Shown here piece by piece: positions 11,452 through 37,088 of a stretch of 37,320 nucleotides of DNA. This DNA comes from Fibrobacteria bacterium. GTDB taxonomy: Bacteria > Fibrobacterota > Fibrobacteria > UBA11236. The notes under the pieces are model-generated. The model searched no databases, had not been told where the DNA came from, and saw only the letters and a list, made by a program, of their open reading frames with translations. Each line of letters opens with the position of its first letter. Position 1 is the stretch's first letter. Location of the stretch: assembly GCA_041746255.1 (NCBI GenBank), contig JBGTHM010000095.1, positions 1-37,320 of the forward strand. The letters are read 5' to 3'. Made by a program: the position numbers and the translations under genes.

Positions 11452-12330
11452 CTACCGAGTCCCCTTGGTTACGGGAAAAAGTTGGATGTTGACCTGGACG
11501 ATACGATCGCCCTTGCCGCTTTCGGCCTCGAAACCTCTCAATTCCTTCCGCATGAGCTGAACCTGCTTTTTCAGATTCGGCAAATCCGATTCCCGGATGG
11601 GAAAGCATACCGAGGAAATGTCCCGCTCCGGGCCGGGGATCTCATCCTGCGCCAGGGCTGCCAATTTCAGCAGCTGCGCATGATAGTCTTTCACCAGAAA
11701 GGATTTGACCTCGTCATCCGTCGTGATATCCGGATCGGCGGATTTGTACCCGTTGGCCGTTTTTTTGATCATCCCCGAGGCAACCAGCAATTCCAGGGAT
11801 TCCTGGACCTGTGAAGGTTCAACCATAGTCAGCAGCTGTTCCGCAATCCACCTGGGATTATTCCGGAAGCCTTTCAAATTCAACATCTCCCGTATGGCAA
11901 TAGTATACCAGTGCCGGAAGATTTGCAGTTGGGAAGATTCCAGTTTCCGGAATCGGGTTTTGCCCGGCAGCCGCATCAGCTTCTCATAGAAGAATTTCTT
12001 CTCATCGGATGTGCGTGCCTGGTTGAAATAGACCAGATTTTCAAAATATTGGGTTTGATTGGCGTCCAATTTCAAGGCGGCCACGATTTTGGTGAGGGAT
12101 TTCTGGCTAAGGTTGCGTTTACCCTCCATTAAATACTTCAACAAGCCATGACTGGGAAAATTCGCCTTTTTGGCAAAGAAGCGCAGTGAGAATTTGGGAT
12201 CGGCACGCTTATGGGCTGAATAATAGTCTTGCAGGAACTGGCGGTAATTGGTGTAATTCAGAAGGTTTGGGAATTTAATCGATAGCTTGGGCAGCGAGTC
12301 GGATTCGGTTTTGCGCGTCGAATTGGGCAT
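11452..12330 (-). CDS. TIGR02147 family protein (HTH + DUF4423)
   Basis: YTNYRQFLQDYY, FSLRFFAKKA, GKRNLS, YFENLVYFNQA, WYTIAIRE, ERDISS, QVNIQLFP; probable start ATG 12330. Confidence 0.88.
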   Translation of the reverse strand: MPNSTRKTESDSLPKLSIKFPNLLNYTNYRQFLQDYYSAHKRADPKFSLRFFAKKANFPSHGLLKYLMEGKRNLSQKSLTKIVAALKLDANQTQYFENLVYFNQARTSDEKKFFYEKLMRLPGKTRFRKLESSQLQIFRHWYTIAIREMLNLKGFRNNPRWIAEQLLTMVEPSQVQESLELLVASGMIKKTANGYKSADPDITTDDEVKSFLVKDYHAQLLKLAALAQDEIPGPERDISSVCFPIRESDLPNLKKQVQLMRKELRGFEAESGKGDRIVQVNIQLFPVTKGTR

Positions 12331-12525
12331 AAGTCTATTCCCGGTCAACCCTTCTCCTCGAACCTGCCGCATGAACTGGGTATAACATCGGATTCAATTA
12401 TAATTAAACCTCCCAAAATCCTTTCCAGCCGGATATTCACTCCCATGGCTCCGCTCCCATCCTGCCGGGCATCCTTCATTACAATAGGAAGATTTCGTGC
12501 AATAGCTTGGTACTCCCTTGTGAAG

Positions 12526-12597: not shown

Positions 12598-12846
12598 ATG
12601 AAAATTCCGATTCCCTGGAAAAAGTCACAGCGGTTGTTGAAAATGGCCTTGTTGGGGGCTAGTTTCGGCGCCGGAGTGTTCACCGGCTGCGCGATGGTAC
12701 CCCAGGTGGAACGCGAATATTTAAGCGACCCGGTCATGCTGCGTCAAGAGGACGCCCTCGAAGGCGCTTTGGAAGGCCATGATTTTCCCCGTCGCGAAGG
12801 TTCCGTCGGCGGAAGTTCGGGTTCCGGAGGTGGCTGCGGGTGCTGA
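12598..12846 (+). CDS. DUF4266 family lipoprotein
   Basis: FTGC lipobox, V..EREYL.DP.M, REGS.GG..GGGCGC C-terminus. Confidence 0.88.
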   Translation: MKIPIPWKKSQRLLKMALLGASFGAGVFTGCAMVPQVEREYLSDPVMLRQEDALEGALEGHDFPRREGSVGGSSGSGGGCGC

Positions 12847-14069
12847 AAAGTTTCCTCCATTCGGGCACCCGGGTTCGCCGTGCCGGACGGTTCCTAGGGA
12901 CGACTGTACTGGCACTATTACTGCAGACGCCCTCCCTTGTGCAGGCCGCCGGCGCGGGCAACACCTTGGCCTTCAAACACGAATATTTCTGGGATCGCAA
13001 TGGTGTATGGAATCACACTCCCGCATTTTCGTTCAATTGGGCTCTCTCCCGCAAATGGAGCTTCAATTGGGAGCAGGAAGTGGATGTCGTTACCGGTGCC
13101 TCACGGATGTTGGGTGCGGATAAAGTCGGCCCCTTTGGCGATCGTAAGTTGGACGCGGTTTCCGGAGCCTCCAAGGTGGAGACACGGCATTCCGAAAATC
13201 CCGGTATCGTCTATTCCCACAAAGGAGTCGTAGCCGGCGCCTCATTCTATCATAGCAGGGAGCCGGACTATTTTTCGTTGGCGCCGGCCGCTTCCCTCGC
13301 GTGGGATTTCAATGAACGCAATACTACCCTCGGGGTCAGCTGGGCCCAGTTTTTTGACGATTACCGCCCCTTCGGAGCCTATTCCGGCCAGGGCGGGAAA
13401 AAACGGATCCGTAGCCTGGGTGCTACTCTAGCTCAGTCCGTCACACCTTTGACCCTATTGGGCCTGACCGGTTCCTACATTTCCAGTTGGGGCTATCTGG
13501 GGCGTCCCTACAACCCACCCGTCGATATCAACGGCGTGATCATGATCGAGTCCGTGCCGGACCGCAGAACGGCCCTGGCCGTTGCCGGCCAAATTGTCCA
13601 GGGATACCATCTGGGAGAAAAGCTGGGCTCGATGAACCTGGACGTACGCCGCTTCCAGGATACCTGGGGAATCCGCTCCACCACCGCCGATGTCAAAATC
13701 AGCCAGTATTTCGCGGAAGGCGCTTTTTTCCGGATACGCGGCCGCTACTACAATCAAACCGGCGCGTTGTTCGCCAAGGAAGCCTACTCCGGGGCGGAGA
13801 AATACCATACGGCCGACATTCGGTTTTTCCCGTTTTCCTCTTGGCTGGTGGGCGCCAAGCTCTCCACCGCCTTCCCGGAATCGTGGGGGGAATTCATGCT
13901 CCTGCCCGACCGTTGGGATATCAAATACGACCATGTGATCCGGAATACCCGCGGTGATCCGGTAGGGTCCGTGGACGGCCGGCCCCCACGTGTACTCTAC
14001 CAATTGTATGGACCCGACGAGTATTACCTCCAGGGAACCCTGATGTTGGGACTAGTGTTCAACCTATAA
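12840..14069 (+). CDS. DUF3570 family outer-membrane protein with two flavinylation motifs
   Basis: DVVTGAS (13083-13103), DAVSGAS (13152-13172), SREPDY, FNERNTTL, GYLGRPY, PDRR, DTWGI; overlaps DUF4266. Confidence 0.85.
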   Translation: MLKSFLHSGTRVRRAGRFLGTTVLALLLQTPSLVQAAGAGNTLAFKHEYFWDRNGVWNHTPAFSFNWALSRKWSFNWEQEVDVVTGASRMLGADKVGPFGDRKLDAVSGASKVETRHSENPGIVYSHKGVVAGASFYHSREPDYFSLAPAASLAWDFNERNTTLGVSWAQFFDDYRPFGAYSGQGGKKRIRSLGATLAQSVTPLTLLGLTGSYISSWGYLGRPYNPPVDINGVIMIESVPDRRTALAVAGQIVQGYHLGEKLGSMNLDVRRFQDTWGIRSTTADVKISQYFAEGAFFRIRGRYYNQTGALFAKEAYSGAEKYHTADIRFFPFSSWLVGAKLSTAFPESWGEFMLLPDRWDIKYDHVIRNTRGDPVGSVDGRPPRVLYQLYGPDEYYLQGTLMLGLVFNL

Positions 14070-14084
14070 CGAAAGGACTGAAAA

Positions 14085-14615
14085 ATGATACCGGAAAAAT
14101 CCGTTAAAATTCGGGGAAAATCCTCGACGCTGAGAGCCTGCACAGTCCTGGTTCTGACCCTGTCCCTGTCCGTTGCTTCCATGCTGCGCGCGGAGAATTC
14201 CGAGACATTGCCGTCCTTCACCTTGCCGGATCTGGACGGCAAACAATGGAGCAGTGAAGATTTCAAAGGGAAGCCGGTGATATTCGACTTCTGGGCCACT
14301 TGGTGCACGGTATGCGAGGAGACCATTCCCAAGCTGTCCGAACTCAGCAAGAAGTACAAGAATAAGGGATTGACAGTCGTGGGAATCAGCGTGGACAAGG
14401 GCTCCCAACGGAAAATCCAGCGGACGGCCAAGAAGTGGGGCATCGACTATCTGGTTCTGCACGACAAGGAGAATACCCTGGGAAGTGTTTTCGGATTCAG
14501 CGGCATTCCTTCTGTGTATGTCTTTGATCGCAAAGGAAAACGCACCTTGGCCATGCCGGGATATGATCCGGATCACGATGAACAATTGGACGCCGCCGCC
14601 GAAAAGGCGCTTTAG
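14085..14615 (+). CDS. TlpA/ResA-like thioredoxin (disulfide reductase)
   Basis: PSFTLPDLDG, FWATWCTVC, VGISVD, GIPS..FDRKG. Confidence 0.92.
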   Translation: MIPEKSVKIRGKSSTLRACTVLVLTLSLSVASMLRAENSETLPSFTLPDLDGKQWSSEDFKGKPVIFDFWATWCTVCEETIPKLSELSKKYKNKGLTVVGISVDKGSQRKIQRTAKKWGIDYLVLHDKENTLGSVFGFSGIPSVYVFDRKGKRTLAMPGYDPDHDEQLDAAAEKAL

Positions 14616-14641
14616 GCCAAACCGGGAAACAAGTAAAACTA

Positions 14642-15346
14642 ATGAATATTTTCTCCCCCGAAAACTTATCGTCCTCACTTTCCACCGGATCCCTCGGGGT
14701 GATATTTCTCTGCTTCGTGGCGGGCGTGGCTTCCAGTTTCACACCGTGTATCTATCCTTTGGTACCGGTAACCATCAGCATTCTTGGATCCCGGCAAGTC
14801 GGTTCCAAGTTACGCGGGTTCTTTCTGACTATGGCCTATGTAGGCGGTATTTCGGTCACCTACGCGACCCTGGGATTCATCGCAGCTTTGACGGGTTCTC
14901 TTTTCGGATCCTTCAGCGCCAACCCCTGGGTGATGCTGGGAATCGCGGCTGTGGTGATGGCGCTGGCGCTGAACATGTTCGACGTATTTCAGATTCGTTT
15001 CCTCGGTCTGAATTTCTGCGGAGCGGGGGAGCATAAACCGGGCTTTTTCTCGAATTTCGGATACGGGCTCACCTTCGGGCTGGTGGCGTCGCCTTGCACC
15101 GCTCCTCCCCTGGCCGTGATACTTACCTGGGTGGGAACCACCCGCAGCATGGTGATGGGCCCGTTGTTGCTCTTCACCTTCGCCTTGGGCATGGGAAGCA
15201 TTCTCATTCTGCTTGGAACTTTTTCCTCCTTTTTGACGCGGATTCCCAAATCCGGAATGTGGATGGTCGCCATCAAGAAGGGCATGGGATATCTGATGGT
15301 CATCATGGCCGGCTATTTCGCCTTCAAGGCGGGGACCCAATGGTGA
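14642..15346 (+). CDS. DsbD/CcdA transmembrane electron transporter
   Basis: AGVASSFTPCIYP and ASPCTAP redox cysteines, ~6 TM helices, PKSGMWM. Confidence 0.92.
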   Translation: MNIFSPENLSSSLSTGSLGVIFLCFVAGVASSFTPCIYPLVPVTISILGSRQVGSKLRGFFLTMAYVGGISVTYATLGFIAALTGSLFGSFSANPWVMLGIAAVVMALALNMFDVFQIRFLGLNFCGAGEHKPGFFSNFGYGLTFGLVASPCTAPPLAVILTWVGTTRSMVMGPLLLFTFALGMGSILILLGTFSSFLTRIPKSGMWMVAIKKGMGYLMVIMAGYFAFKAGTQW

Positions 15347-16083
15347 AGTGGATTGCCGCCATCGCGGTGTTGTCGGGTTGTTTGGTCGGCTGCCTCAACC
15401 TGAAGCCGGATGAGGTCGAGTTGACTTCCCCATCCACCTCGAGGGTTTCGCTTTCGATACCGGATTGCGCGGGTTGCCATTCGTATCCGTTGAATGACGT
15501 CAACCATAATTTTCACCTGCGCTCTGCCAGTACCCGCGAAAGCATGGAAAGTATTTTCCCCTACGAAAGGAAGACCGGGGTCATGGTCTGCATGGATTGC
15601 CACTTCGGGTCCATGGCGCATCGCGGCTACACTTGGTACGACACGCTTTGGGGCACTGCGGACGACCTCCGCGTCACTGCCGACAAGCTGCCCGGCGATC
15701 CCATTTACCGCATCGATTCCATACCCGGATTCCTGCCCATGCCCGCAGGCGTGCCCGAAGCCGAAATAACCGCCGGAAAAGTCGACCATTTGATGGACAG
15801 CGCGGCCAGCATCGGGGCCGTTGTCGCTTGGCTGACGTCCCTGGACCATATGAACGGCGTGGTGGATGTGGAATTCTCCCCCAATATCGTTCTGGATACC
15901 TCCCTTTCTAAAATGGCATTCCAGCCCAGGGACCTCAGTTGTTCGGCCATTGAATGCCACAATGCGCCCAAGAAGGTATACCGATGGGCGTCCCATGAAT
16001 TGCGGCTTCCGGGGTGTCCCACACCCATACACACGCCTGAATTGGATTCGAGTTGCCGATATTCACCAAACCAGGAACCCTAA
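15340..16083 (+). CDS. c-type cytochrome lipoprotein (CxxCH x2 + CxxxxCH)
   Basis: ATG 15340 overlaps the ccdA stop; LVGC lipobox; CAGCH, CMDCH, HMNGVVDVEF...CSAIECH. Confidence 0.8.
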   Translation: MVKWIAAIAVLSGCLVGCLNLKPDEVELTSPSTSRVSLSIPDCAGCHSYPLNDVNHNFHLRSASTRESMESIFPYERKTGVMVCMDCHFGSMAHRGYTWYDTLWGTADDLRVTADKLPGDPIYRIDSIPGFLPMPAGVPEAEITAGKVDHLMDSAASIGAVVAWLTSLDHMNGVVDVEFSPNIVLDTSLSKMAFQPRDLSCSAIECHNAPKKVYRWASHELRLPGCPTPIHTPELDSSCRYSPNQEP

Positions 16084-16109
16084 TGTTCAGTCAATACAAG
16101 GAGATTTAC

Positions 16110-17228
16110 ATGCAGAAGGCCAGAGCTTTTTTCGTACCCTGCATCCACAAGAAAAACAGGACCGGATTGTGGTTTTTTTTGGGGGCGGCGGTTCTCGCGG
16201 GATTCTCCGCTTCGGGGTTGGATGCATCTTCCAATGCCGCCTTTGCCGGCGCCTATGCCGCAGCGGCCTGCGATGCCACCACCGGCGCCTCCTGCAAGGT
16301 GGTGGGCGTGAAAACCACTCTCAGTAGTGCTACTTTGACGTGGACGGAAAAGCACAGGAACGGCACCCGGAATTTCTGCTACGGAATCGGTTCCCCCAGC
16401 AAATGCGCAAAAGTAACCTCCCGCGCCCGCGGCACGAAAGAGCAGGTAGTCAATGGCCTCAATGCGAATACGAAATATTCCTATAAATTTTTCGGAATCT
16501 GGAAAGGAAAAACCAAATCGGTGGTGACGGGTACCTTTACCACGAACAGTTCCGCCTGCGGAACCAGCGTCATCTCCGTGGTGGAGGTAGGCGGGGTGGT
16601 CCTGTCCGTGAGCGGTGATTCGCTGGAAAACGCCTTGGTGACCCTGACCCGGAAATCGGACAACCAGGCGATTGCGGTGGATACCACCGATCTTTCCGGA
16701 GGCTATTTTTTCGAGGTGGATCCAGGTACCTATGAGATCACGGTTTCCCATCCTCCTTTCACTTCCCCCGCGCCCTATACCGCCACGGTAATCGCCAAAA
16801 AACCCCTGGATGTTCCCGACTTCGTGCTTTCCGGCGCTTTCCAAATCGGCGGAACCTTGGTATCGGAAAACATGCTTGACTCCCTTTCGGGAGCTACCAT
16901 CACGGCGGTTAACGCCGCGGAACCTTCCGAGACCTATACCCGCATCACCGATGACGAAGGACATTTCACTTTCGGAATGAAGCAGGGTGAGTATATGCTG
17001 ACCGCAACTTATAATGGAAAATCCATGGCCAGCCCCTTGCGTATATCCGTCACCAGGAGCATGGAATTGCCTCCCTTCTCACTGGCTTATGTGGCCGCCG
17101 TCCGGGGGCGGGAAGGCCGACTTTTCGGGTCCACCAACTCCCTGAAGCAAAAGCAATACGATGCCAAAGGAGTACGAAATCCCGATGCGCCGGTTTCGCG
17201 ATGGAGGAGGCTGTTTGGCGCGCCCTGA
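16110..17228 (+). CDS. Secreted protein: FN3-like domain + two carboxypeptidase-regulatory-like domains; candidate flavinylation substrate
   Basis: GGAG RBS before ATG 16110; signal peptide; CDATTGASC; VNGLNANTKYSY (FN3); TTDLSGGYFF..PGTYEI and TDDEGHFTF..GEYML repeats; tail YDAKGVR. Confidence 0.75.
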   Translation: MQKARAFFVPCIHKKNRTGLWFFLGAAVLAGFSASGLDASSNAAFAGAYAAAACDATTGASCKVVGVKTTLSSATLTWTEKHRNGTRNFCYGIGSPSKCAKVTSRARGTKEQVVNGLNANTKYSYKFFGIWKGKTKSVVTGTFTTNSSACGTSVISVVEVGGVVLSVSGDSLENALVTLTRKSDNQAIAVDTTDLSGGYFFEVDPGTYEITVSHPPFTSPAPYTATVIAKKPLDVPDFVLSGAFQIGGTLVSENMLDSLSGATITAVNAAEPSETYTRITDDEGHFTFGMKQGEYMLTATYNGKSMASPLRISVTRSMELPPFSLAYVAAVRGREGRLFGSTNSLKQKQYDAKGVRNPDAPVSRWRRLFGAP

Positions 17229-18270
17229 ATGGATCCGTTTCGCCCCGCTTCTGGGCCTGGCCTTTGTCCAGTGCCGGGAAGTGGTGCGAACCCATAATTG
17301 GTTCGCCATGGATACCAATATGTCCGTTTCCCTTTACGGCGAATCCTCGCTATCGGACGAGGAGGTTTTTGCAAGGCTTGAAGCGGAGACGGAGCGTCTC
17401 GGCAATCTTTTCAGCGACTACTCTTTGGCGTCCCCGGTGGCGAAAATGATCGGTAGCTTGGGAGATACGCTGGCCGTGGATCCGGAGATTTACCCGGTCC
17501 TGGCAGCCGCTCTGGAGGCGGGCGAATCCGCCCAGGGTGTCTTTGACATCACATTGCATGATTTGAAGGCGCTGTGGGGAATCGGGTCCGGAGAAAATAA
17601 TCGTGTACCGGATTCATCGGAAATCGATTCCGTGATGGCGGGAAACCCCGTTTACCGGCAGGCTTTCGAAGGCTTTTCCTGGCAACCGCCTTTGCTGCTA
17701 TTGCCGGATAACCGGGCCGTGCTGCTGCGCGAAAATTGCCGCCTGGACCTGGGGGCTATCGCCAAGGGGCATATCGTGGATCGTCTTCATGCGATATTGG
17801 ACTCTCTCGGCCTTTCCGATCATATTATCCAGGCGGGGGGCGATATCCGCCTGGGCGGCAAGAAAAGTTCCGGTCCCTGGATCCTGGGAATCCGCCACCC
17901 CCGGTCCGCCGATTCATTGAGCGGTAGGATAAGCCTTTCCACCGCCATGGCGGTATCCACGTCCGGGGATTACGAGCGTTTCTTCGAAGCGAATGGCGAG
18001 CGCTACCACCATATCCTGGATCCACGCACCGGTCGCCCGGCCCGCGGGGTTTCCTCCGTCACCGTCCTGGCCGGCTCCGGCATCGTGGCCGATGTCCTTT
18101 CCACTTCCCTGTTTGTGCTGGGACCGGACAAAGGCGCCGAATTGGCTCGGCGATACCAGGCCTCCGCCGTCTGGTTCAAAGCGCTTCCGGAGGGAATTTG
18201 CGCCATCGCCATGCCGGAGATCAGCGACTGGTTACAATTGGGGGGAGTCGCTTCCTGTCCCTCGATGTGA
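17215..18270 (+). CDS. apbE: FAD:protein FMN transferase
   Basis: AMDT, GVFDIT, LDLGAIAKG, AGGDI, VSTSGDYER, YHHILDPRTG, ADVLST; lipobox; TTG 17215 follows GGAGGAGG. Confidence 0.95.
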   Translation: MARPEWIRFAPLLGLAFVQCREVVRTHNWFAMDTNMSVSLYGESSLSDEEVFARLEAETERLGNLFSDYSLASPVAKMIGSLGDTLAVDPEIYPVLAAALEAGESAQGVFDITLHDLKALWGIGSGENNRVPDSSEIDSVMAGNPVYRQAFEGFSWQPPLLLLPDNRAVLLRENCRLDLGAIAKGHIVDRLHAILDSLGLSDHIIQAGGDIRLGGKKSSGPWILGIRHPRSADSLSGRISLSTAMAVSTSGDYERFFEANGERYHHILDPRTGRPARGVSSVTVLAGSGIVADVLSTSLFVLGPDKGAELARRYQASAVWFKALPEGICAIAMPEISDWLQLGGVASCPSM

Positions 18271-18291
18271 GGGCGGGATTGCGGAAGACCC

Positions 18292-18672
18292 ATGTTTCGC
18301 CCGGGCGGTTGGTTTCGGCCTATGGATGCTTTCGTGATTCTCGTGGCGGCATCCGCTTCTTGTTGGGGTTTTCTCGGTTATAAGCTGGAGGGCGACGCCA
18401 AGGCCATGGTCTATTTGGACGGTGTCAAGCATGCCGTGTTCGACCTTGCCGATAAACGGCATGAGGCTGAAGTTTCCACCCATATCGGCCCTATGCGGTT
18501 GGAGGTTGGCGATGGGTCGGTGCGCATCCTCAAATCACCCTGCCCCAATCATCTTTGTATGAAGTCGGGAGCGGCCCGGTATGTGCATTCGGAAATCATC
18601 TGCGTTCCCGCCCGGCTGCTGATTGTCGTCGAAGGTAAGGGAATCGGGGAACTCGATGTCATTACTTATTGA
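18292..18672 (+). CDS. NusG domain II-containing protein (DUF1312)
   Basis: N-terminal TM, SPCPNHLCMKSG, IICVPARL. Confidence 0.88.
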   Translation: MFRPGGWFRPMDAFVILVAASASCWGFLGYKLEGDAKAMVYLDGVKHAVFDLADKRHEAEVSTHIGPMRLEVGDGSVRILKSPCPNHLCMKSGAARYVHSEIICVPARLLIVVEGKGIGELDVITY

Positions 18673-19939
18673 ACCGGCTGAAATGGCGCCGGCTGAAGGT
18701 GTGCGGCTTGAACCCGCGCGCCTCCACCGCAAGCAGCCCCGAAGGGTTTTGCGGCGCCACCAATACCCGTCCCGGCTTCCCCGTTCCGAGCCGGCGGCTT
18801 CCCATGCCGTCGGCCTTACCGCCGGAGTGTTCGCCCTGGCCCTGGTGGCCGCCTCCAGTCTCCAGATCATGGAAATTCTGATTCCCCGTTTCCCCTTGTT
18901 CCCCTGGATGCGACTGGGATTATCCTATATCATAATCCTGCCGTTCTTGCTGCGATATGGCGGCCGGGCGGCATTCGCATTGCTGGTGGCCCGAAATCTG
19001 ATCACCCTGCTCTATGGTGGCCAGCCGTTCTCGACCTTTCTTATCGGTACGGGGGCGGGAGCCGTCGCCTTGCTATCCATCGGCCCACTGTTGCGCGCGG
19101 CATACTCCCGGGACCTGCTGGGGATAACCGGCATCAGCGTCTGTCTCGCGTCGGTTTTCAATCTTTCCCAACTCACCCTGGTCAATCTGGCTTTGATCCG
19201 GCATGCCGGATTTTTTGTGCAATTGGGTCCTATCCTCGCATGGTCCTTGTTTTCGGGCGTCTTGGTAGCTGCCTTGATCCGTCTCTCCGAAAAGGAGATT
19301 CCGGCCTTTCTCACCGTTGCGCCCAAAACCGCGTCTGCCACGCCGCAAGCCAACCCCCTCAAGGAGGGAAATGTGTGGATTTTCCTGGTTGGGTTGATGG
19401 GAATGGCGGGAATTCTCCTGGTTCCCTCGGCAAGCCTTCAGGTTACGGCACTGCTGGTGCTGGCTCTGGTTTCGCGGGACAGGGGCAAAGCACTATTGGT
19501 GGCCTGGCCTTTTCTCTTTTATCTGGCCTGGCTGCATCTTTTTCATACCTCCGGTGAGTATCTCATCGGGGACTGGGTGACGCGCGAAGGACTGCGGGAT
19601 TTCGTCTGTCATGCCGCGCGTCTTGGAAATCTCATTCTGCTGGGTCGATGGGTGTCGCGCCGGTTTCCCTGGCAATGGACGCGCCATTCGCAAAGCGGTT
19701 CAACAGGCCGGCAATCCCTCTATGTCCAAGGCTTCCTGCTGGCGCTTCCGTTGTTGCCGAATCTTTTCAAGCCAAGCCTGGAGCTGGGAAGGATTGTGGT
19801 CCGGAAATTATGGACCGGGAACCACACGGATGCCATGTCCCCGGCTTTTTCCGCTTGGCGCAATCTGCTGGAGGTTCCCGCCGCGCCCTCAGTAGAGGCA
19901 AAGACGGCCGACGTTCATTCCGACCGCAACCATTTATAG
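18656..19939 (+). CDS. Gx transporter / heptaprenyl diphosphate synthase component I family domain fused to an EcfT-like membrane domain
   Basis: LQIMEILIP..PWMRLGLS, GITGISV..SVFNLSQL; C-terminal LHLFHTSGEYL...VTREGL....ARL resembles an EcfT N-terminus. Confidence 0.7.
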   Translation: MSLLIEPAEMAPAEGVRLEPARLHRKQPRRVLRRHQYPSRLPRSEPAASHAVGLTAGVFALALVAASSLQIMEILIPRFPLFPWMRLGLSYIIILPFLLRYGGRAAFALLVARNLITLLYGGQPFSTFLIGTGAGAVALLSIGPLLRAAYSRDLLGITGISVCLASVFNLSQLTLVNLALIRHAGFFVQLGPILAWSLFSGVLVAALIRLSEKEIPAFLTVAPKTASATPQANPLKEGNVWIFLVGLMGMAGILLVPSASLQVTALLVLALVSRDRGKALLVAWPFLFYLAWLHLFHTSGEYLIGDWVTREGLRDFVCHAARLGNLILLGRWVSRRFPWQWTRHSQSGSTGRQSLYVQGFLLALPLLPNLFKPSLELGRIVVRKLWTGNHTDAMSPAFSAWRNLLEVPAAPSVEAKTADVHSDRNHL

Positions 19940-26688: not shown

Positions 26689-28143
26689 ATGCGATTGATT
26701 TCTCCATTCAACTTGTTGCTCATTTCTGCTACGGCCATGCTGGCGCATGCCCAAGAAGACGTGCGATTGAAACTCAACGGCTCCGGGTGGTTACAGTTCG
26801 GGCGCGTGATGCACAGTAGCGATACGCTGGACAGGACCTATAATTATAACGACAACTGGTTCCAGAGCTCCGGCGCCCAATTCACGGTATTGGCCGATAT
26901 CGACCAAAACTGGGAGGGAGCCATGGGTCTGGGCGGATTCCAGGTGCACAATGGACAGGGGACCGAATTCTCCGCCCTCACCACCAGCCTGGGATTTTCT
27001 CCTTTTATCACCGAAGCGCGCATCACCTATTTTCTGGACGACAAGGAAAGTTCCCCCCTGGAGCTCACTTTCGGCCTCTTTCCCTACCATTACAACCGCG
27101 ATGTCAAAAACCTCGGGCAATACCTTTTTCGCGGCCCGGTCTACCCGGGATTCCTGATATCGGAATTCGAATCCTCGTCCATTGATACCACAGTCGCAAA
27201 CATGCTGGGCATGCAAGCCCGCCACCGTATCGGCAATTTCACCCACGATCTGATTCTCCGCAGCGAAACCGAACTGCCACCCGTTTTCGACTTCTCCCTG
27301 GGATATTTGGCCCAAATCGATTTCGGTGGAATTTTGGAGTTGGGCATGGGCGTAAACTTCCATCGCCTGATGCCCATCAAAGGCGACCTGACCAATTTGC
27401 GGGACCGCGATATTTTCCCCGTCCGCAACCCGAATGCCGGGGCCGGCCCCTACGACGGCTCCTATGCCCATGTCTCCACCGATACCTCCATCATTCCGGC
27501 AGCCCAGCGCGCGACGCCGGACGACAGCCTCCAGGTAATCCGCGATACCACCTTCCTTTCCCACCAGGGCGCCAAGCTCATGGGCCGCATGGCCTTCCAT
27601 CCCGGGCGGCTGCTGGAATCGGACCTGATTGGCCCCAATGACTTCAAGCTGTACACCGAAATCGGCGTTATCGGCGTCCGTAATTACAAAGGTGTGTATC
27701 CGGATATAAAACAGCGCATACCCGTCCTATTCGGGTTCAATATTCCCACCTTCCGCCTTTTGGATGAGGCCGCGCTGGAAGTGGAATGGTATGGCGCCCC
27801 CTACCGCAACGATTATTACCGGCTGGTCAATGAAACCTCGCCGGTTCCGGTAAGCAATTCGGGCCTCGGCCGGGAAGCCGACGCTTTTGGAAGGCTGGAC
27901 GGAGACAGTACCGTGGTCTTCGGCGATCCTTTCGACGTCGAGAATATGCGCAAGGACAACTGGAAGTGGTCTCTCTATTTGGCCAAGACCTTTCAAAACC
28001 ATGTGCGTTTCAGCATGCAAGTGGCCAATGATCATTTTCGCCCCAATACCCTCGCAACCGATGCGAAATCCGCCCAATTCAATACGGCAACCACAACCTT
28101 GAAGGACTGGAATCTGATGTTCCGGCTGGGTTTTCTTTTTTGA
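26689..28143 (+). CDS. Outer-membrane protein, paralog 1 of 3
   Basis: Signal peptide; KNLGQYLFRGPVYPG, DNWKWSL, ANDHFR; C-terminal LGFLF. Confidence 0.8.
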   Translation: MRLISPFNLLLISATAMLAHAQEDVRLKLNGSGWLQFGRVMHSSDTLDRTYNYNDNWFQSSGAQFTVLADIDQNWEGAMGLGGFQVHNGQGTEFSALTTSLGFSPFITEARITYFLDDKESSPLELTFGLFPYHYNRDVKNLGQYLFRGPVYPGFLISEFESSSIDTTVANMLGMQARHRIGNFTHDLILRSETELPPVFDFSLGYLAQIDFGGILELGMGVNFHRLMPIKGDLTNLRDRDIFPVRNPNAGAGPYDGSYAHVSTDTSIIPAAQRATPDDSLQVIRDTTFLSHQGAKLMGRMAFHPGRLLESDLIGPNDFKLYTEIGVIGVRNYKGVYPDIKQRIPVLFGFNIPTFRLLDEAALEVEWYGAPYRNDYYRLVNETSPVPVSNSGLGREADAFGRLDGDSTVVFGDPFDVENMRKDNWKWSLYLAKTFQNHVRFSMQVANDHFRPNTLATDAKSAQFNTATTTLKDWNLMFRLGFLF

Positions 28144-28145
28144 TT

Positions 28146-29600
28146 ATGGAACCCGGTATGGAGAAAAGGCTTTATTCCATGCAATCACCTGCAATGAAAT
28201 CCGAATTACCCCTTTGCAAGCACCGGAGGATGGGCCGCCGGACCGCTGCGGCTCTCGCCGCGGCCGCTCTGATGTTTCCTCTGCATGCCGGCGCCGATAC
28301 CTTCGACAACCTCGACGTCAAATTTCGCGGCGCAGGCTGGTTCAAGTCCGGCATGATCATGCAAAGCTCCGATACCGTAACCGGATCCGTGCAGAACAAC
28401 TATAACGGAAATTGGTTGCAGGACGCCGGCGCCCTTTTGACAGGCGTCGTAAACCTCAGCGAAAATTTCGAAGGCGCCTTCGGAGTGGGCGCAATCCAGA
28501 AGCATGCCGCCCAGGGGGTTCTCGACCAGGCCCGATTCGTGAAATTGGGCATGAACATCTTCCTCACCCAATCCCGCTTCACCTGGTTTCCTGAAGGCAA
28601 GCAGGATTTCAATCACAAGGTGACGCTCGGATGGTTCCCCTACAAATATGATCACAATATCAAGAACCTGGGGTTGTATCTCATTCGTGGACCGGTATAT
28701 CCGGGCATTCTCTTCTCCGGCTTCGAGTCGAAAGAGATGCTGAACACCGCGAATATGCTGGGCGGCCACGTCCAGAATAAATTCGGGCCTTACACGCAGG
28801 ACCTGCTGCTCAGCAGCGAAGTGGACTTGAAACCGCTTTTCGATTTTTCCTTCCTCTATGTCGGCACTCTGAAATTGGGAAGCGCTTTCGAAATCGGAGG
28901 CGGGGCGAATTTCTACCATTACCTCCCCGTCCGGCCCGGTTTGACCAGCCCTTCGGAGGAAAAGGGATTCAACCCGAACGTAAAGGAGCAGGGGAATTTC
29001 CAGGAACACCCCAACGATTACCTGTACGCCGTCCCCTTGGATTCCGCCGGCACCCAATTTCAATGGGTAACGCATAAGGGCATTAAAGTCATGGGGCGCT
29101 TCGCGCTGGACCCGAAGGCCCTTTTCGACGGTGCGGGATCTTTGGGACCGAATGATTTGAAGCTGTATGGCGAGGTCGGCATCCTGGGAACCAAGAACTA
29201 TCCCGGCGTTTACGACAAGGTTGCCGAAAGGATGCCCATGATGCTGGGCTTCAATTTGCCGGCCTTCGGCCTGCTGGATAACCTCTCCTTCGAGGTGGAA
29301 TATTACAATTCGGAAGTCGTGCCGGATTATCGGAAAATCGTGGAACGATCATCGGCCATCCCGCAAACGCCCTATATCAATCGCGGTCCGTCTAATCCCG
29401 AACCTTACCGGGTCCATGCCGATGATTGGAAATGGTCCTTGTATTTCAACAAGGTCATGGCCGGCCATGTCAAGCTCAGCGGCCAATTGGCAAACGATCA
29501 CTTCCGAACCGGGGGAACGGCGGGTTTTCCGTCTTACGAAGAAGCAATGACCGCCTTGTATGATTGGTACTGGATGTTAAAACTGAGCTACTTCTTTTAA
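28146..29600 (+). CDS. Outer-membrane protein, paralog 2 of 3 (start uncertain, 28146-28230)
   Basis: KNLGLYLIRGPVYPG, DDWKWSL, ANDHFR; C-terminal LSYFF. Confidence 0.8.
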   Translation: MEPGMEKRLYSMQSPAMKSELPLCKHRRMGRRTAAALAAAALMFPLHAGADTFDNLDVKFRGAGWFKSGMIMQSSDTVTGSVQNNYNGNWLQDAGALLTGVVNLSENFEGAFGVGAIQKHAAQGVLDQARFVKLGMNIFLTQSRFTWFPEGKQDFNHKVTLGWFPYKYDHNIKNLGLYLIRGPVYPGILFSGFESKEMLNTANMLGGHVQNKFGPYTQDLLLSSEVDLKPLFDFSFLYVGTLKLGSAFEIGGGANFYHYLPVRPGLTSPSEEKGFNPNVKEQGNFQEHPNDYLYAVPLDSAGTQFQWVTHKGIKVMGRFALDPKALFDGAGSLGPNDLKLYGEVGILGTKNYPGVYDKVAERMPMMLGFNLPAFGLLDNLSFEVEYYNSEVVPDYRKIVERSSAIPQTPYINRGPSNPEPYRVHADDWKWSLYFNKVMAGHVKLSGQLANDHFRTGGTAGFPSYEEAMTALYDWYWMLKLSYFF

Positions 29601-29635
29601 ATGATTACCGCAAAAAAAGGCCTGGTTGGAATCAG

Positions 29636-31120
29636 ATGGATATGACTTACCAAAATGCGAACAATACGAGTTTTGCCGGATTGATCCTCGCGGCATGGAT
29701 CCGAAAAGGCGCCAGGCTCCTGGTCCTGCCGGCCCTAGGGCTGGCCTGGCTGGCCTGCCCGTCCTCGCCGGCGGCCGCGGAAAACCTTGAGGTGCGCGTA
29801 AATGGCCTCGGGTATGTCCAAGCCGGGCGCATCATGCACTCCTCCGATTCCATCGACTACAATTACAACGGCAACTGGTTCCAGAAGGCGGCGGCCCAGA
29901 TTACCGCGCATGCGCAAATCAACAAGAACCTGGAAGGAGCGTTGGGAATAGGCGCCAGGCAGGCGCACAAGGCCCAGGAGCGCCTCGATGCCGCCCGGCG
30001 CCTGCAGGTAGGCGTGGAACCTTATATCTCCGAGGCCCGGTTTACCTATACCCGCGGCGACATTGAAGCTCCTTCACTGCAAATCACCTTCGGGTATTTC
30101 CCTTACAATTACAACCCTTCCGTGCGAAACCTGGGACTGTACCTGCTGCGGGGAACGGTCTATCCCGGCTTCCTTTTTTCCGGGTTCGAAACCGATGAAA
30201 CCATGCCGATAGCCAATACTCTGGGCGCCCGCCTGCATGGCGCCACCGGGCCCTTTCAGCACGATGTCATCCTTTCGAGCCAGACCAATGTGCGTCCCCT
30301 GTTCGATTATTCCCTCGCCTATATCGGGCGCTATGCCAACTCCGTTTTCGAAATCGGCGCCGGGGTCAATTTCTACCGCCTGATTCCCATCGTGCCCGAA
30401 TTGACCACTCCTCGCGATACCACGGTTTTCACCGAAAGGTATTCGGATAGTGAGATCTTGAGCAAATACGACCGCAACCATCTCTATATCGAAAATACGC
30501 CTACGGGGCCCGATACGACCCGGTTCACGCTCAAAGGCACGAAGCTGGCCTCTTTCATGTCTTTGGACTTGAAGGCCTTGACGGGCCAGGGCGCCATGGG
30601 CGACAAGGATTTGAAACTGTATTCCGAAGTCGCTCTCATCGGGGTAAAGAGTTACAAGGGGATATATGACGACATTCTCCAGCGGATACCGGTAATGTTG
30701 GGATTCAATATTCCCGCCTTCAAGCTGCTGGACCACCTTTCCCTGGAAGTGGAATGGTATGGCGCCCCATATAGGAACGATTACCAGAAGCTCGAAAATG
30801 AATATTCTCCCATCCCGGTTTCGAATCAGAACTTGCAAAGGGTTCCCGAGACCGATTCCACCGGGCAATTGGTTATCAGCCGCGGGCCTGGAGAATCCTA
30901 TCCCTATGCCGACCCCTTTGATGTTGAAAATATGGTCCAGGACAATTGGAAATGGTCCCTGCACGGCGCTAAAACCATCAAAAACCAGATCCGCATCAGC
31001 GCGCAACTGGCCAACGACCATTTCCGCACTGGAGGAAGCACCAATTCGGATACCTTTGAATCGGCATTCAGCACCCTGAAGGACTGGTATTGGATGACGA
31101 AAATCAGCTATTTCTTTTGA
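29636..31120 (+). CDS. Outer-membrane protein, paralog 3 of 3
   Basis: RNLGLYLLRGTVYPG, DNWKWSL, ANDHFR; C-terminal ISYFF. Confidence 0.8.
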   Translation: MDMTYQNANNTSFAGLILAAWIRKGARLLVLPALGLAWLACPSSPAAAENLEVRVNGLGYVQAGRIMHSSDSIDYNYNGNWFQKAAAQITAHAQINKNLEGALGIGARQAHKAQERLDAARRLQVGVEPYISEARFTYTRGDIEAPSLQITFGYFPYNYNPSVRNLGLYLLRGTVYPGFLFSGFETDETMPIANTLGARLHGATGPFQHDVILSSQTNVRPLFDYSLAYIGRYANSVFEIGAGVNFYRLIPIVPELTTPRDTTVFTERYSDSEILSKYDRNHLYIENTPTGPDTTRFTLKGTKLASFMSLDLKALTGQGAMGDKDLKLYSEVALIGVKSYKGIYDDILQRIPVMLGFNIPAFKLLDHLSLEVEWYGAPYRNDYQKLENEYSPIPVSNQNLQRVPETDSTGQLVISRGPGESYPYADPFDVENMVQDNWKWSLHGAKTIKNQIRISAQLANDHFRTGGSTNSDTFESAFSTLKDWYWMTKISYFF

Positions 31121-35481: not shown

Positions 35482-35810
35482 TGAACTGTCCCCTCTGATC
35501 CGGACAGATTATGCTGCCCACCTCGCTACGTTTTCGGCCGGGCGGCAATAGCCGATAAAAGTATGTCTCCTTCGCAGATTGTACCAGGTTTCTATCCAAT
35601 CAAAAGATACCTGTTCCACTTCAAGGCCTGCTAAAGGGCCGAGAGATCCAAATCCGTATCGGGATTTCTCGACTCCGGCCATCCCGCCACTTTTCGGGAA
35701 TAGAGATCCAGAATAACAGCCGGATAGACCCATCCGCTTTGGGTCCACATGTAGGTGATGTCAGACGTCCAGGTTTTATTGAGTCCCGAAGGTTTGAAAT
35801 TCCGATTCAA
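35482..35810 (-). mobile_element. IS3-family remnant (right end + internally deleted integrase core)
   Basis: Terminal IR-like TGAACTGTCCCCTCTGATCCGGACA (35482-35506); LNRNF...WTSDITY...GWVY..VILDLYSRKVAGW; WIETWYNLRRRH..IGY..P. Confidence 0.85.
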
Positions 35811-36060
35811 GCGATGCTGAAGGCCATTCACGTTCAGGAAGATCTTGCGGCAGCACAAGCGAAAGCCAAGCTTGTTGTATTCAGGCTTCGGGAAATGAAG
35901 CTACCTGAGGCTGCAATGCGAGTGGAATCAGGCATTGAAGAGATGCTCACATATATGCGATTTCCTCGAGAGCATTGGGTACGGATCCGCACCAACAACA
36001 CCGTTGAGCGGTTGAACCGGGAATTTAAACGGGGGACACGCGTCGTGGGAAGCCTTCCGA
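35811..36060 (+). mobile_element. IS256-family transposase C-terminal fragment
   Basis: MLKAIH.QED...LTYMRFPREHWVRIRTNNTVERLNREFKRGTRVVGSLP. Confidence 0.88.
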
Positions 36061-36119
36061 TTACCTTTTTGCGTACCCTTCACAATGGGGCACCCGTGGA
36101 GCTTGGAACTAAGCGCGGC

Positions 36120-37088
36120 TTATTTTGGAATCGAGATCTGAACGCCATTGATTGAAACAAATTTTCCGCCATCCTCCCTATTGGCGCCCGGCACTTGGAA
36201 AAAGTTGGAATTTCCCATTCTCATAACCAGTAGGTTACGGGAAACCATTGGATTCAATGGGACAATCGACGTGGTGACGGGTGCAGTTGGATTCTTGAAT
36301 TTTGCGATGACCTGGGCCGGTGTCCCCCTTTGATCTCCGGTCAGGCCGTACCACATCATGCCTGCGTCAGATACATCTCCGGGTTTTGCCGTTTGCGTTG
36401 TATAAAGCCATTGGTAATCCGCTGACATGCTCTTGAGTGGATCCCATTTTCCCGCTGCGGATTTTCCCATGAGATCGTTCTGGTCCGATATCTGAACGAA
36501 GCGGGCTCCGCCGGGTAAAGCCTTCAAGTCATTCCAGTCATGAGTCATAGCCGGTGGAATGACCCTTTTGTTATTGACTGTGGAATGTGAAACAAAGGTT
36601 AAGAATTTGCGCTTGTCCACCGCAACTTCTTTCAAACACCTATAAAGGACTTCCATAGGTCCGGCGGCCAGTATTATCAGGGGGTCGTCGGCCGAGGACG
36701 CTTCCGCCACCTTTTTGAAGTTGGCGATGGCGCCTTTTAAATCTTTCAGATCATTAAAAAAGATGCCTTCTGGGAAACCGAAACGTTTGGCGCCCTCCAG
36801 GGTAAACTTTTCCATCCGTTTATCCCAATCGCCATTGGACCTGGTGATTTTGTTATTATAGTCAAAATGAACGCAATTCTTTTGGACCCCAAAGGCATGT
36901 GCCATGGCTATTGCGAATGGAGTGGCTCCCCAATCATCATTATCAATTAAATTCCCATCGCAACTATACGCATAGCGTGTGTTCGCCTTTATAAGCTGCG
37001 CTTCCACCGGCTTAATCGCCAATAACATCAAGGCCATTAGCAATACGGCATATAAGGAAGTTCTTATTCTACTGATATTCTTTATCAT
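36120..37088 (-). CDS. Secreted protein with nucleoside-hydrolase-like Asp motif; paralog of 33571-34641
   Basis: GGGAG RBS before ATG 37088; signal peptide; DGNLIDNDDWGA, AAGPMEV, SHS, ISDQN, GDVSDAG. Confidence 0.75.
   Translation of the reverse strand: MIKNISRIRTSLYAVLLMALMLLAIKPVEAQLIKANTRYAYSCDGNLIDNDDWGATPFAIAMAHAFGVQKNCVHFDYNNKITRSNGDWDKRMEKFTLEGAKRFGFPEGIFFNDLKDLKGAIANFKKVAEASSADDPLIILAAGPMEVLYRCLKEVAVDKRKFLTFVSHSTVNNKRVIPPAMTHDWNDLKALPGGARFVQISDQNDLMGKSAAGKWDPLKSMSADYQWLYTTQTAKPGDVSDAGMMWYGLTGDQRGTPAQVIAKFKNPTAPVTTSIVPLNPMVSRNLLVMRMGNSNFFQVPGANREDGGKFVSINGVQISIPK

Follow-up and report, generated by a model that had tools for sequence, protein, structure and literature searches.

A stretch of DNA of 37,320 nucleotides from a Fibrobacteria bacterium (the window in what follows) contains an operon in which the gene directly upstream of apbE encodes an apparently secreted protein of 372 amino acids, and we propose that this protein is modified with flavin mononucleotide (FMN) by the flavin transferase ApbE and represents a new, Fibrobacterota-specific class of ApbE substrate. 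Judging from sequence, structure models and gene context, we put the probability of this reading at about 0.6. The ApbE motif is given, in the part of PMC12052999 devoted to it, as D-x-x-[S/T]-G-A-[S/T], and residues 55-61 of the protein (D55ATTGAS61) match it exactly. The heptapeptide is encoded by nucleotides 16272-16292, lies about 8-12 residues past the predicted mature N terminus and is flanked by two cysteines, C54 and C62 (CDATTGASC), precisely where a first reading of the bare sequence (the original prediction) had put it; as that reading had also stated, apbE (PF02424) is the next gene downstream. It overlaps the 3' end of the gene. The same part of PMC12052999 describes a 7-residue flavin-tag that suffices for modification and performs best at a protein terminus, and the position of the motif at the mature terminus therefore makes flavinylation chemically plausible.

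The gene starts with ATG at 16110, 7 nt behind a strong Shine-Dalgarno sequence (AAGGAG). The export signal and the mature N terminus were judged by eye and not with a signal-peptide predictor: a basic n-region (KKNR) is followed by a hydrophobic core (L20-F32) and cleavage sites of the AxA type, several in number, in agreement with the secretion that had been predicted. A full-length AlphaFold2 (AF2) model built from 12 sequences (predicted local distance difference test (pLDDT) score, 70.3; predicted template modelling score, 0.39) places a helix at residues 19-33, disorder up to about residue 52, a fibronectin type III (FN3) domain at 62-144, an isolated strand at 149-151, two β-sandwiches at 158-241 and 244-325, and disorder at 330-372. 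A second model, of residues 45-161, was built from an alignment of 32 relatives and shows a seven-strand sandwich (pLDDT 74); the first 15 residues of this model, with most of the motif, fall below 50. The best Foldseek matches of this N-terminal domain are all FN3 (E from 2e-4, TMt 0.6-0.77), and in the PDB the family profile aligns with FN3 chains at E values down to 5e-28 (titin), the alignments beginning at profile position ~17-24, i.e. beyond the motif. The Pfam fn3 family (PF00041) gave no match to the window's domain even at E up to 10; a short-form relative, P0163, passes it with 27.4 bits (cut-off 25). The FN3-like domain of the original prediction is thus confirmed, and its two stalk-like domains turn out to be two CarboxypepD_reg domains (PF13620; 71.5 bits against a cut-off of 32.3, E 7.4e-20, stretches 160-240 and 247-305). 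Equally as predicted, neither FMN_bind nor any other known flavinylated domain was matched in the whole protein by Pfam at E up to 0.01 or by NCBIfam, or on residues 45-161 by Pfam at E up to 10. NCBIfam gave no match at all to the 372-residue protein, its C-terminal sorting domains included (for the type IX secretion system, Por_Secre_tail), and no curated family covers these proteins, for which the NCBI label is "fibronectin type III domain-containing protein." In these models, therefore, the motif sits on a flexible arm before a generic FN3 domain and outside any flavin-binding fold.

Three other readings of short segments in this protein were set aside. C54 is a poor candidate for a lipoprotein cysteine, lying ~20 residues past the hydrophobic core and without a lipobox-like context in most homologues. 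A second motif, D257SLSGAT263 (16878-16898), lies in the second CarboxypepD_reg domain, for which "GATVT" is typical, and its -3 serine is replaced by M, E, A or Q in the orthologues. Finally, the Bacteroidota-type O-glycosylation motif, D-[ST]-x, does not fit, as the aspartate precedes A or V.

Long-form orthologues, 36-51% identical over their full length, come from Fibrobacteria metagenome-assembled genomes. The original prediction would have been abandoned had the motif been absent from orthologues; instead, 10 of 12 long forms keep the strict motif and the two others carry DATSAAS and DATTSAS, so that all 12 conform to a relaxed D-x-x-[ST]-x-A-S. C54, D55, T57, A60 and C150 are invariant in these 12, and the residues preceding C54 vary; C62, the second cysteine of the proposed CDxxTGASC, is found in only eight. 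To define the wider family, 296 genomes of the phylum were searched with residues 54-157 and 27 matched. Three of these (G125, G172 and G188) were set aside as generic FN3 matches, in frames of 129, 1,959 and 1,976 aa and starting at query residue 19-27, which leaves 24 carrier genomes (this tally and the phylum-wide ApbE tally below include one unpublished genome, G254, which enters no other result). An alignment of 32 N-terminal domains, 22-69% identical to that of the window (most of the distant ones 25-35%), has only two invariant columns, the aspartate of the motif and a tyrosine of the FN3 domain. Read by eye, the alignment shows S or T as the final motif residue in 32/32 and at -3 in 31/32, and in all 32 the motif is placed right behind the signal peptide and ahead of FN3 strand A. 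The variants seen in these FN3-tag proteins, as we call them here, resemble the motifs DVVSGAS and DAVSGAS of DUF3570 proteins in the same clusters. We note that a profile of the N-terminal domain, when run against 1.84 billion representatives, returned 33,888 matches led by giant multi-FN3 proteins; it behaved as a generic FN3 profile and was uninformative on the motif.

A word-index search with the 32-domain alignment added 45 short proteins of 97-203 aa. In 42 of them D-x-x-[ST]-A-A-S follows directly after the AxA site (SAAS in 30, TAAS in 12), and of the remaining three, two read DAVSADS and DAVSAPS and the third is cut at its N terminus. These short forms constitute a subfamily of mostly ~170-180 aa (P0160-P0204, and the proteins of L043, L047 and L052) whose mature proteins begin with [KRE]-P-D-[AV]-[VI]-[ST]-A-A-S in the same 42 of 45 cases; ApbE may recognise this sequence as a relaxed motif, or else it is a signal of another kind.

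The FN3 gene is one of nine plus-strand genes at 12598-19939, which encode, in order, DUF4266, DUF3570, TlpA-like, DsbD, tri-haem cytochrome, FN3-tag, ApbE, NusG_II and PF07456 proteins (Table 1). By its gene content the operon is an instance of the published "DsbD system" (DUF4266, DUF3570, thioredoxin-like, DsbD and ApbE) with a putative FAD exporter, to which the cytochrome and FN3 genes are additional. The original prediction had recognised TlpA, DsbD and apbE and had missed the DUF4266 and DUF3570 genes and the cytochrome gene upstream. The apbE frame covers the last 44-68 nt of the FN3 gene (17161-17228), which points to translational coupling of the two genes; the same DNA here encodes the C-terminal tail of the FN3 protein and the signal peptide of ApbE. 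The cytochrome gave only weak matches (Cytochrome_C7 and TIGR01904), none of them above a Pfam or NCBIfam cut-off, yet its two CxxCH and one CxxxxCH motifs are kept in 14 of the 14 homologues examined. These homologues (L031-L054) lie invariably in or beside the DUF3570 clusters under study, and the cytochrome gene directly precedes the long-form FN3 gene in six of seven loci. By analogy, the NusG_II protein may be EetA-like and the NusG_II/PF07456 pair a putative exporter of flavin adenine dinucleotide (FAD); the PF07456 gene probably starts later than 18623. The genome is 100% complete and contains two ApbE genes, three DUF3570/DUF4266 loci and no FMN_bind domain, and its ApbE substrates must therefore be non-classical in any case.

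We compared 26 neighbourhoods by tblastn with the operon proteins of the window. In the window, in L035 (a long form) and in L038, L039, L042, L046 and L054 (short forms, from another family), the FN3 gene is preceded by a cytochrome or dsbD gene and followed by apbE. In L034 (a long form) it follows the cytochrome gene on a contig that ends before any apbE, in L045 it follows dsbD, in L031, L032 and L036 it stands beside the cytochrome gene only or beside DUF3570, and in L037 three paralogues are located 2.4 kb from DUF3570-TlpA-DsbD. A scan with a DUF3570 alignment, limited to one genome per species, yielded 69 loci, several of which are shared with the 26 neighbourhoods and are thus not independent of them. 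Of these, 45 are Fibrobacterota-type loci (44 carry that title and one is titled "uncultured bacterium"), and a hidden Markov model of the N-terminal domain detected an FN3-tag gene in 20 of them and in none of the 24 loci from other phyla; 19 of the 20 genes are on the same strand as DUF3570 and 1.1-2.6 kb beyond it. A cruder scan of the 69 loci for a canonical motif soon after a hydrophobic N terminus gave 20 candidates, all of them DUF3570 or FN3-tag proteins; it found no other motif-bearing open reading frame (ORF), nor did the 24 loci of other phyla yield any. At the level of genomes, ApbE is encoded in 22 of the 24 carriers (the remaining two are 82% and 69% complete) compared with 127 of the 296 genomes of the phylum, counts which are descriptive only, as the genomes are interrelated. 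In the largest family of the phylum in our collection (f6, 9/151) and in one genus (g6, 2/12) ApbE is nearly absent, and it is common in other lineages; f6 and g6 seem to have lost envelope flavinylation.

Table 1. Genes of the operon and segments of the FN3-tag protein in the window
Feature	Position	Strand	Evidence or remark
DUF4266 lipoprotein ending CGC (CXC motif)	12598..12843	+	PF14086, 43.6 bits (cut-off 27); genome search match 12703-12843
DUF3570 protein, motifs DVVTGAS and DAVSGAS	12840..14069	+	PF12094, E 3.5e-25
TlpA/ResA-like periplasmic thioredoxin-fold protein	14085..14615	+	PF00578 and PF08534; NCBIfam ResA/TlpA below cut-offs
DsbD/CcdA-type transmembrane thiol-disulfide transporter	14642..15346	+	PF02683, E 2e-42
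Tri-haem c-type cytochrome, probably a lipoprotein (LSGC); two CxxCH, one CxxxxCH	15340..16083	+	Motifs
Secreted protein with candidate flavin-tag, FN3 and two CarboxypepD_reg domains	16110..17228	+	372 aa; subject of this work
Putative signal peptide	16110..16247	+	Cleavage uncertain, near AFA/G; inspection and AF2 helix 19-33
C54-D55ATTGAS61-C62	16269..16295	+	S61, predicted FMN attachment residue; low-confidence tail before FN3 strand A
FN3 domain, residues 62-144, with C90/C99 pair	16293..16541	+	AF2, Foldseek, PDB profile search
A149-C150-G151	16554..16562	+	Short isolated strand 149-151 in AF2 model; C150 invariant
Two CarboxypepD_reg β-sandwich domains, residues 158-241 and 244-325	16581..17084	+	PF13620, AF2
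Disordered C-terminal tail with Y350DAKGVR356	17097..17225	+	pLDDT <50
ApbE flavin transferase	17161 or 17185..18270	+	PF02424, E 4e-71, profile positions 1-264 of 266
NusG_II-domain protein	18292..18672	+	PF07009, E 3e-18
PF07456 (EetB-type) membrane protein, putative FAD-exporting ECF-S (energy-coupling factor S) subunit	18623..19939	+	PF07456, E 2.8e-18

We also predicted the complex of ApbE with the tail and FN3 domain. The median of the interface score ipSAE was 0.49 (0.49, 0.60 and 0.43 in the individual runs) compared with 0.00 for the best of three controls, with a partner pLDDT of at least 64 and at least 20% of the contacts common to the runs. Of 157 solved complexes, 116 attain the mark applied here, as do 2 of 215 mismatched pairs; at an ipSAE of 0.60 or less, however, just 18 of the 157 attain it, together with both of the passing mismatches, and these calibration counts hold only roughly, since our prediction used its own alignments. 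The prediction thus lends weak support to modification of the tail by ApbE.

Several observations weigh against flavinylation of the FN3-tag proteins. Across the 32-domain alignment, the strict [ST]GA[ST] is present in only 10 members: the glycine is kept in 17 (otherwise A in 5, S in 3, T in 6 and Q in 1) and the alanine in 23 (otherwise S in 8 and G in 1), and G-to-A and A-to-V substitutions left ~50% flavinylation in one enzyme, according to the section of PMC12052999 on such substitutions. The DUF3570 motifs of the same clusters are mostly canonical [ST]GAS, one protein having two variants, which may mean that the constraint on the FN3 motif is a different one. DUF3570, a proven substrate family encoded in the same operon, would by itself explain the presence of apbE, so that adjacency to apbE is unspecific; FN3 has no known flavin pocket; and a C54-C62 disulfide, if formed, would create a 9-residue loop that might hinder ApbE. 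In three loci (L043, L047 and L052) there is no apbE near the FN3 gene, which has dsbD on one side and the NusG_II/PF07456 genes on the other, and paralogues in 11 further loci (L033, L040, L041, L044, L048-L051, L053, L055 and L056) are outside any redox cluster. A Pfam scan of 77 ORFs around L048, L055, L049, L040, L050 and L033 and in the flanks of L031/L032 revealed no consistent redox neighbour, the neighbours being GH9, GH16, SPOR, a TonB receptor, FeoAB, a multicopper oxidase and DUF4423. Lastly, D..[ST]GA[ST] occurs 13 times in the stop-to-stop frames of at least 100 aa of this genome and 3-12 times in five shuffles; the genome-wide count is near chance and the motif alone is unremarkable. 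What goes beyond chance is that 4 of the 13 occurrences are clustered in this one operon (two in DUF3570, plus DATTGAS and DSLSGAT of the FN3-tag protein), together with the conservation in relatives.

These points can be read to mean that the protein is a structural surface protein without flavin, i.e. a spacer or adhesin in which D-x-x-[ST]-x-x-[ST] serves folding, processing or a partner contact, and that ApbE modifies DUF3570 only, the family described as its substrate in such clusters in the relevant part of PMC8238504. The short forms, 42 of which are fixed on [ST]AAS instead of [ST]GAS and whose clusters lack apbE, fit this explanation as well. It leaves unexplained, however, why the two positions that are fixed in the family, the aspartate and the terminal Ser/Thr, are the first and the attachment residues of the ApbE motif, why the variants resemble the DUF3570 motifs of the same clusters, and why the gene stays beside apbE and/or the FAD-export genes across families and ApbE is so frequent among carriers. 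We consider a purely structural role unlikely. An unmodified segment could also act as a docking peptide or pseudo-substrate, which would mimic the DUF3570 sites, bind ApbE or DUF3570 and so tether the FN3 protein to the flavin machinery or regulate it. The similarity to the DUF3570 motifs, the weakly passing ApbE-tail prediction and the fact that the non-canonical variants GSS, GGS and AAS are found in the forms most tightly tied to the cluster are all in line with such a role; against it, a mere docking peptide would have no need of the attachment Ser/Thr that is kept in every aligned domain, and we found no precedent in the ApbE flavinylation literature examined. We regard this as very improbable, and ApbE-dependent flavinylation remains the reading that we prefer.

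The original prediction went further and placed the flavin in a disulfide loop controlled by TlpA/DsbD: FMN at S61 would reside in a C54-C62 loop that the pair opens or closes, thereby switching flavinylation or electron transfer. The two cysteines indeed flank the motif where C62 is present, a different cysteine pair (C-x3-D...C) encloses it in another branch (L037, L040, L041, L044, L050 and L051), the genes of the thiol-reducing pair are the third and the second upstream of the FN3 gene, and the mature protein has five cysteines, an odd number. However, C62 is absent from 4 of the 12 long forms, which all retain C54 and C150 (C90 and C99 are present in 11), and this suggests that C54 pairs with C150. 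One orthologue, P0009, has no cysteine at the positions of C62, C90 and C99 and keeps the equivalents of C54 and C150, and the short forms encoded between dsbD and apbE/eetA have no cysteine near the motif. From the alignment, a C54-C150 bond is at least as likely as a C54-C62 bond; C62 would then be a fifth thiol beside S61, possibly free or exchanging, and the cysteine clamp is a lineage-specific trait and not a feature of the family. CcdA and ResA act in haem attachment, and the TlpA/DsbD pair could just as well help to attach haem to the cytochrome encoded next to it. Moreover, TlpA-like and DsbD genes are part of the published system, as described in the part of PMC8238504 on these clusters, and accompany DUF3570/DUF4266 in phyla that have no FN3-tag protein. 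Control of the flavin by a redox-gated loop is thus weakly supported and, in our view, quite improbable, though conceivable in the window's lineage.

If the FN3-tag protein is flavinylated, the operon suggests the following sequence of events. Sec would export the protein, and removal of the signal peptide would leave a flexible N-terminal arm of ~10-15 residues containing D55-A-T-T-G-A-S61. The NusG_II/PF07456 (EetA/EetB-like) pair encoded downstream would deliver FAD to the periplasm, where the lipoprotein ApbE, the product of the next, overlapping gene, would transfer FMN as a phosphoester onto S61 and would likewise modify both motifs of the operon's DUF3570 protein. The resulting protein would present FMN on a mobile arm, followed by FN3, two CarboxypepD_reg spacers and a C-terminal sorting or anchoring tail, and the arm could shuttle electrons between the redox parts of the operon (DsbD to the TlpA-like protein to DUF4266-CXC/DUF3570-FMN, plus the tri-haem cytochrome) and a further acceptor or donor. 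A bolder version, which we consider somewhat less likely than not, holds that the whole Fibrobacterota family consists of natural flavin-tagged proteins, that the FMN arm is a swinging carrier linking DUF3570 and the tri-haem cytochrome to a substrate located at the outer membrane or outside it, that the [ST]AAS and [ST]GSS subfamilies widen the ApbE rule, and that the C54/C62/C150 triad of the window's lineage couples thiol and flavin chemistry.

The C-terminal tail probably sorts or anchors the protein. Its YDAKGVR segment (17157-17177), with 19 residues remaining after YDAKG, had been likened to the tails of other secreted proteins nearby. No other ORF of the window carries such a tail, but the likeness does hold for the genome, where [YFW][DN]..G..[RKQ] occurs near the C terminus of 28 ORFs compared with 11 at a control position, and the motif is kept in homologues of the 372-residue protein. 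In the form [YF][DN]..G[RK] plus ~12-25 residues, the tail is present on many ORFs with signal peptides, e.g. on contigs C1, C10, C23, C32, C37, C57, C83, C97, C99, C108, C110 and C120 of genome G000. The C83 ORF ends in ...YDALGKTATPYSKWKRLFGWN, which is close to the ...YDAKGVRNPDAPVSRWRRLFGAP of the 372-residue protein. We suggest from these sequences that the short tail is a candidate C-terminal sorting tag of this lineage. Some distant relatives of the FN3-tag protein (L040 and L050) have longer C-terminal tails that resemble C-terminal sorting domains to the eye.

Some further features of the genome and window were recorded. Additional DUF3570 paralogues are encoded at G000 C100:168498-169712 and C34:45569-46951, both on the minus strand and each with a DUF4266 gene nearby; in the C100 copy a His-rich stretch, HAGHNHGDHGGHD, directly precedes the DAVSGAS motif and suggests a metal site beside the flavin. 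Upstream of the operon and divergent from it is a DUF4423 gene (11452-12372, minus strand), and three DUF4423 genes surround an unlinked FN3-tag paralogue in L050; DUF4423 may be a lineage-specific regulator. Elsewhere in the window, three tandem paralogous genes at 26689-31120 encode proteins of 484, 486 and 518 aa without a Pfam match, which end in ...DWNLMFRLGFLF, ...DWYWMLKLSYFF and ...DWYWMTKISYFF, sequences that resemble the C termini of outer-membrane barrels, and at 35739-36155 part of a transposase of the Mutator family is encoded (PF00872, matched only over profile positions 273-356 of 379).

ApbE flavinylation is a widespread and partly charted route for electrons outside the bacterial cytoplasm. 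If our reading is correct, the FN3-tag protein would be the first case of natural ApbE tagging of a terminal peptide on a generic scaffold domain, the orphan DUF3570 system would gain a testable candidate electron partner, and comparison of the [ST]AAS and GSS variants would amount to a natural experiment on the specificity of ApbE, of use for flavin-tag labelling. Should the protein be unmodified, its strictly conserved N-terminal segment is nonetheless the mark of a module not described before in a Fibrobacterota envelope operon. Our literature searches retrieved no report linking ApbE or flavinylation to FN3 or Fibrobacter, or NusG_II to ApbE, and among the papers found on DUF3570 none describes an FN3 partner. 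In the article texts, neither "fibronectin" nor "Fibrobacter" appears in PMC8238504, and FN3 and Fibrobacter are likewise not mentioned in PMC9973259.

Three comparisons place the FN3-tag protein among known systems. The first is with ApbE substrates and their engineered counterpart. Known substrate domains, as listed in parts of PMC8238504 and PMC11334425, are FMN_bind1/2 (NqrC, RnfG and PplA), NqrB/RnfD, DUF2271, DUF3570, Flavodoxin_4 and FMN_red. The window's protein resembles them in being extracytosolic by prediction, in having the same motif and in being encoded next to apbE; they carry the motif within a fold, whereas the FN3-tag protein carries it on a tail before a generic FN3 domain, with none of those domains detectable. 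It is closer in this respect to the "Flavin-tag," in which the 7-residue D-x-x-[ST]-G-A-[ST] at a protein terminus is flavinylated by ApbE (Tong et al. 2021, as summarised in a section of PMC12052999), since its motif, too, is at the mature N terminus and outside a flavin-binding fold. The Flavin-tag is man-made; the window's motif is natural, conserved in its family, flanked by cysteines in some members and degenerate in others, and its modification is a prediction. The second comparison is with the extracellular electron transfer (EET) locus of Listeria, which comprises FmnB (ApbE), PplA, EetA/EetB and FmnA and in which EetB (PF07456) is the FAD-exporting ECF-S subunit; 2,169 genomes have eetB colocalised with apbE, and 3,328 have it colocalised with eetA (from the portions of PMC9973259 on this locus). 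Both loci encode a secreted carrier (flavinylated by prediction in the window) together with ApbE and a PF07456 protein. PplA, however, is a Gram-positive lipoprotein with FMN_bind domains, whereas the window's carrier would be an FN3 protein in a diderm, and the operon of the window, unlike the Listeria locus, has no ECF-T/A genes and no NADH dehydrogenase.

The third and closest comparison is with the "DsbD system," in which genes for ApbE, DUF3570, a thioredoxin-like protein and DUF4266 (and DsbD) cluster and DUF3570 is flavinylated at two [S/T]GA[S/T] sites, as shown for a Chlorobium homologue, and the function of which is stated to be unknown in the passages on this system (Meheust et al. 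2021, eLife 10:e66878; PMC8238504). The operon of the window holds each member, including a DUF3570 protein with two [ST]GA[ST] motifs; its thioredoxin-like member matches PF00578/PF08534, whereas PF13899 is the family named for the system in that part of PMC8238504. The system as published has neither an FN3 protein nor a cytochrome, and the window's operon has both, as well as the NusG_II/PF07456 pair. Overall, we conclude that the operon is a known system and that the FN3 gene is a new part of it.

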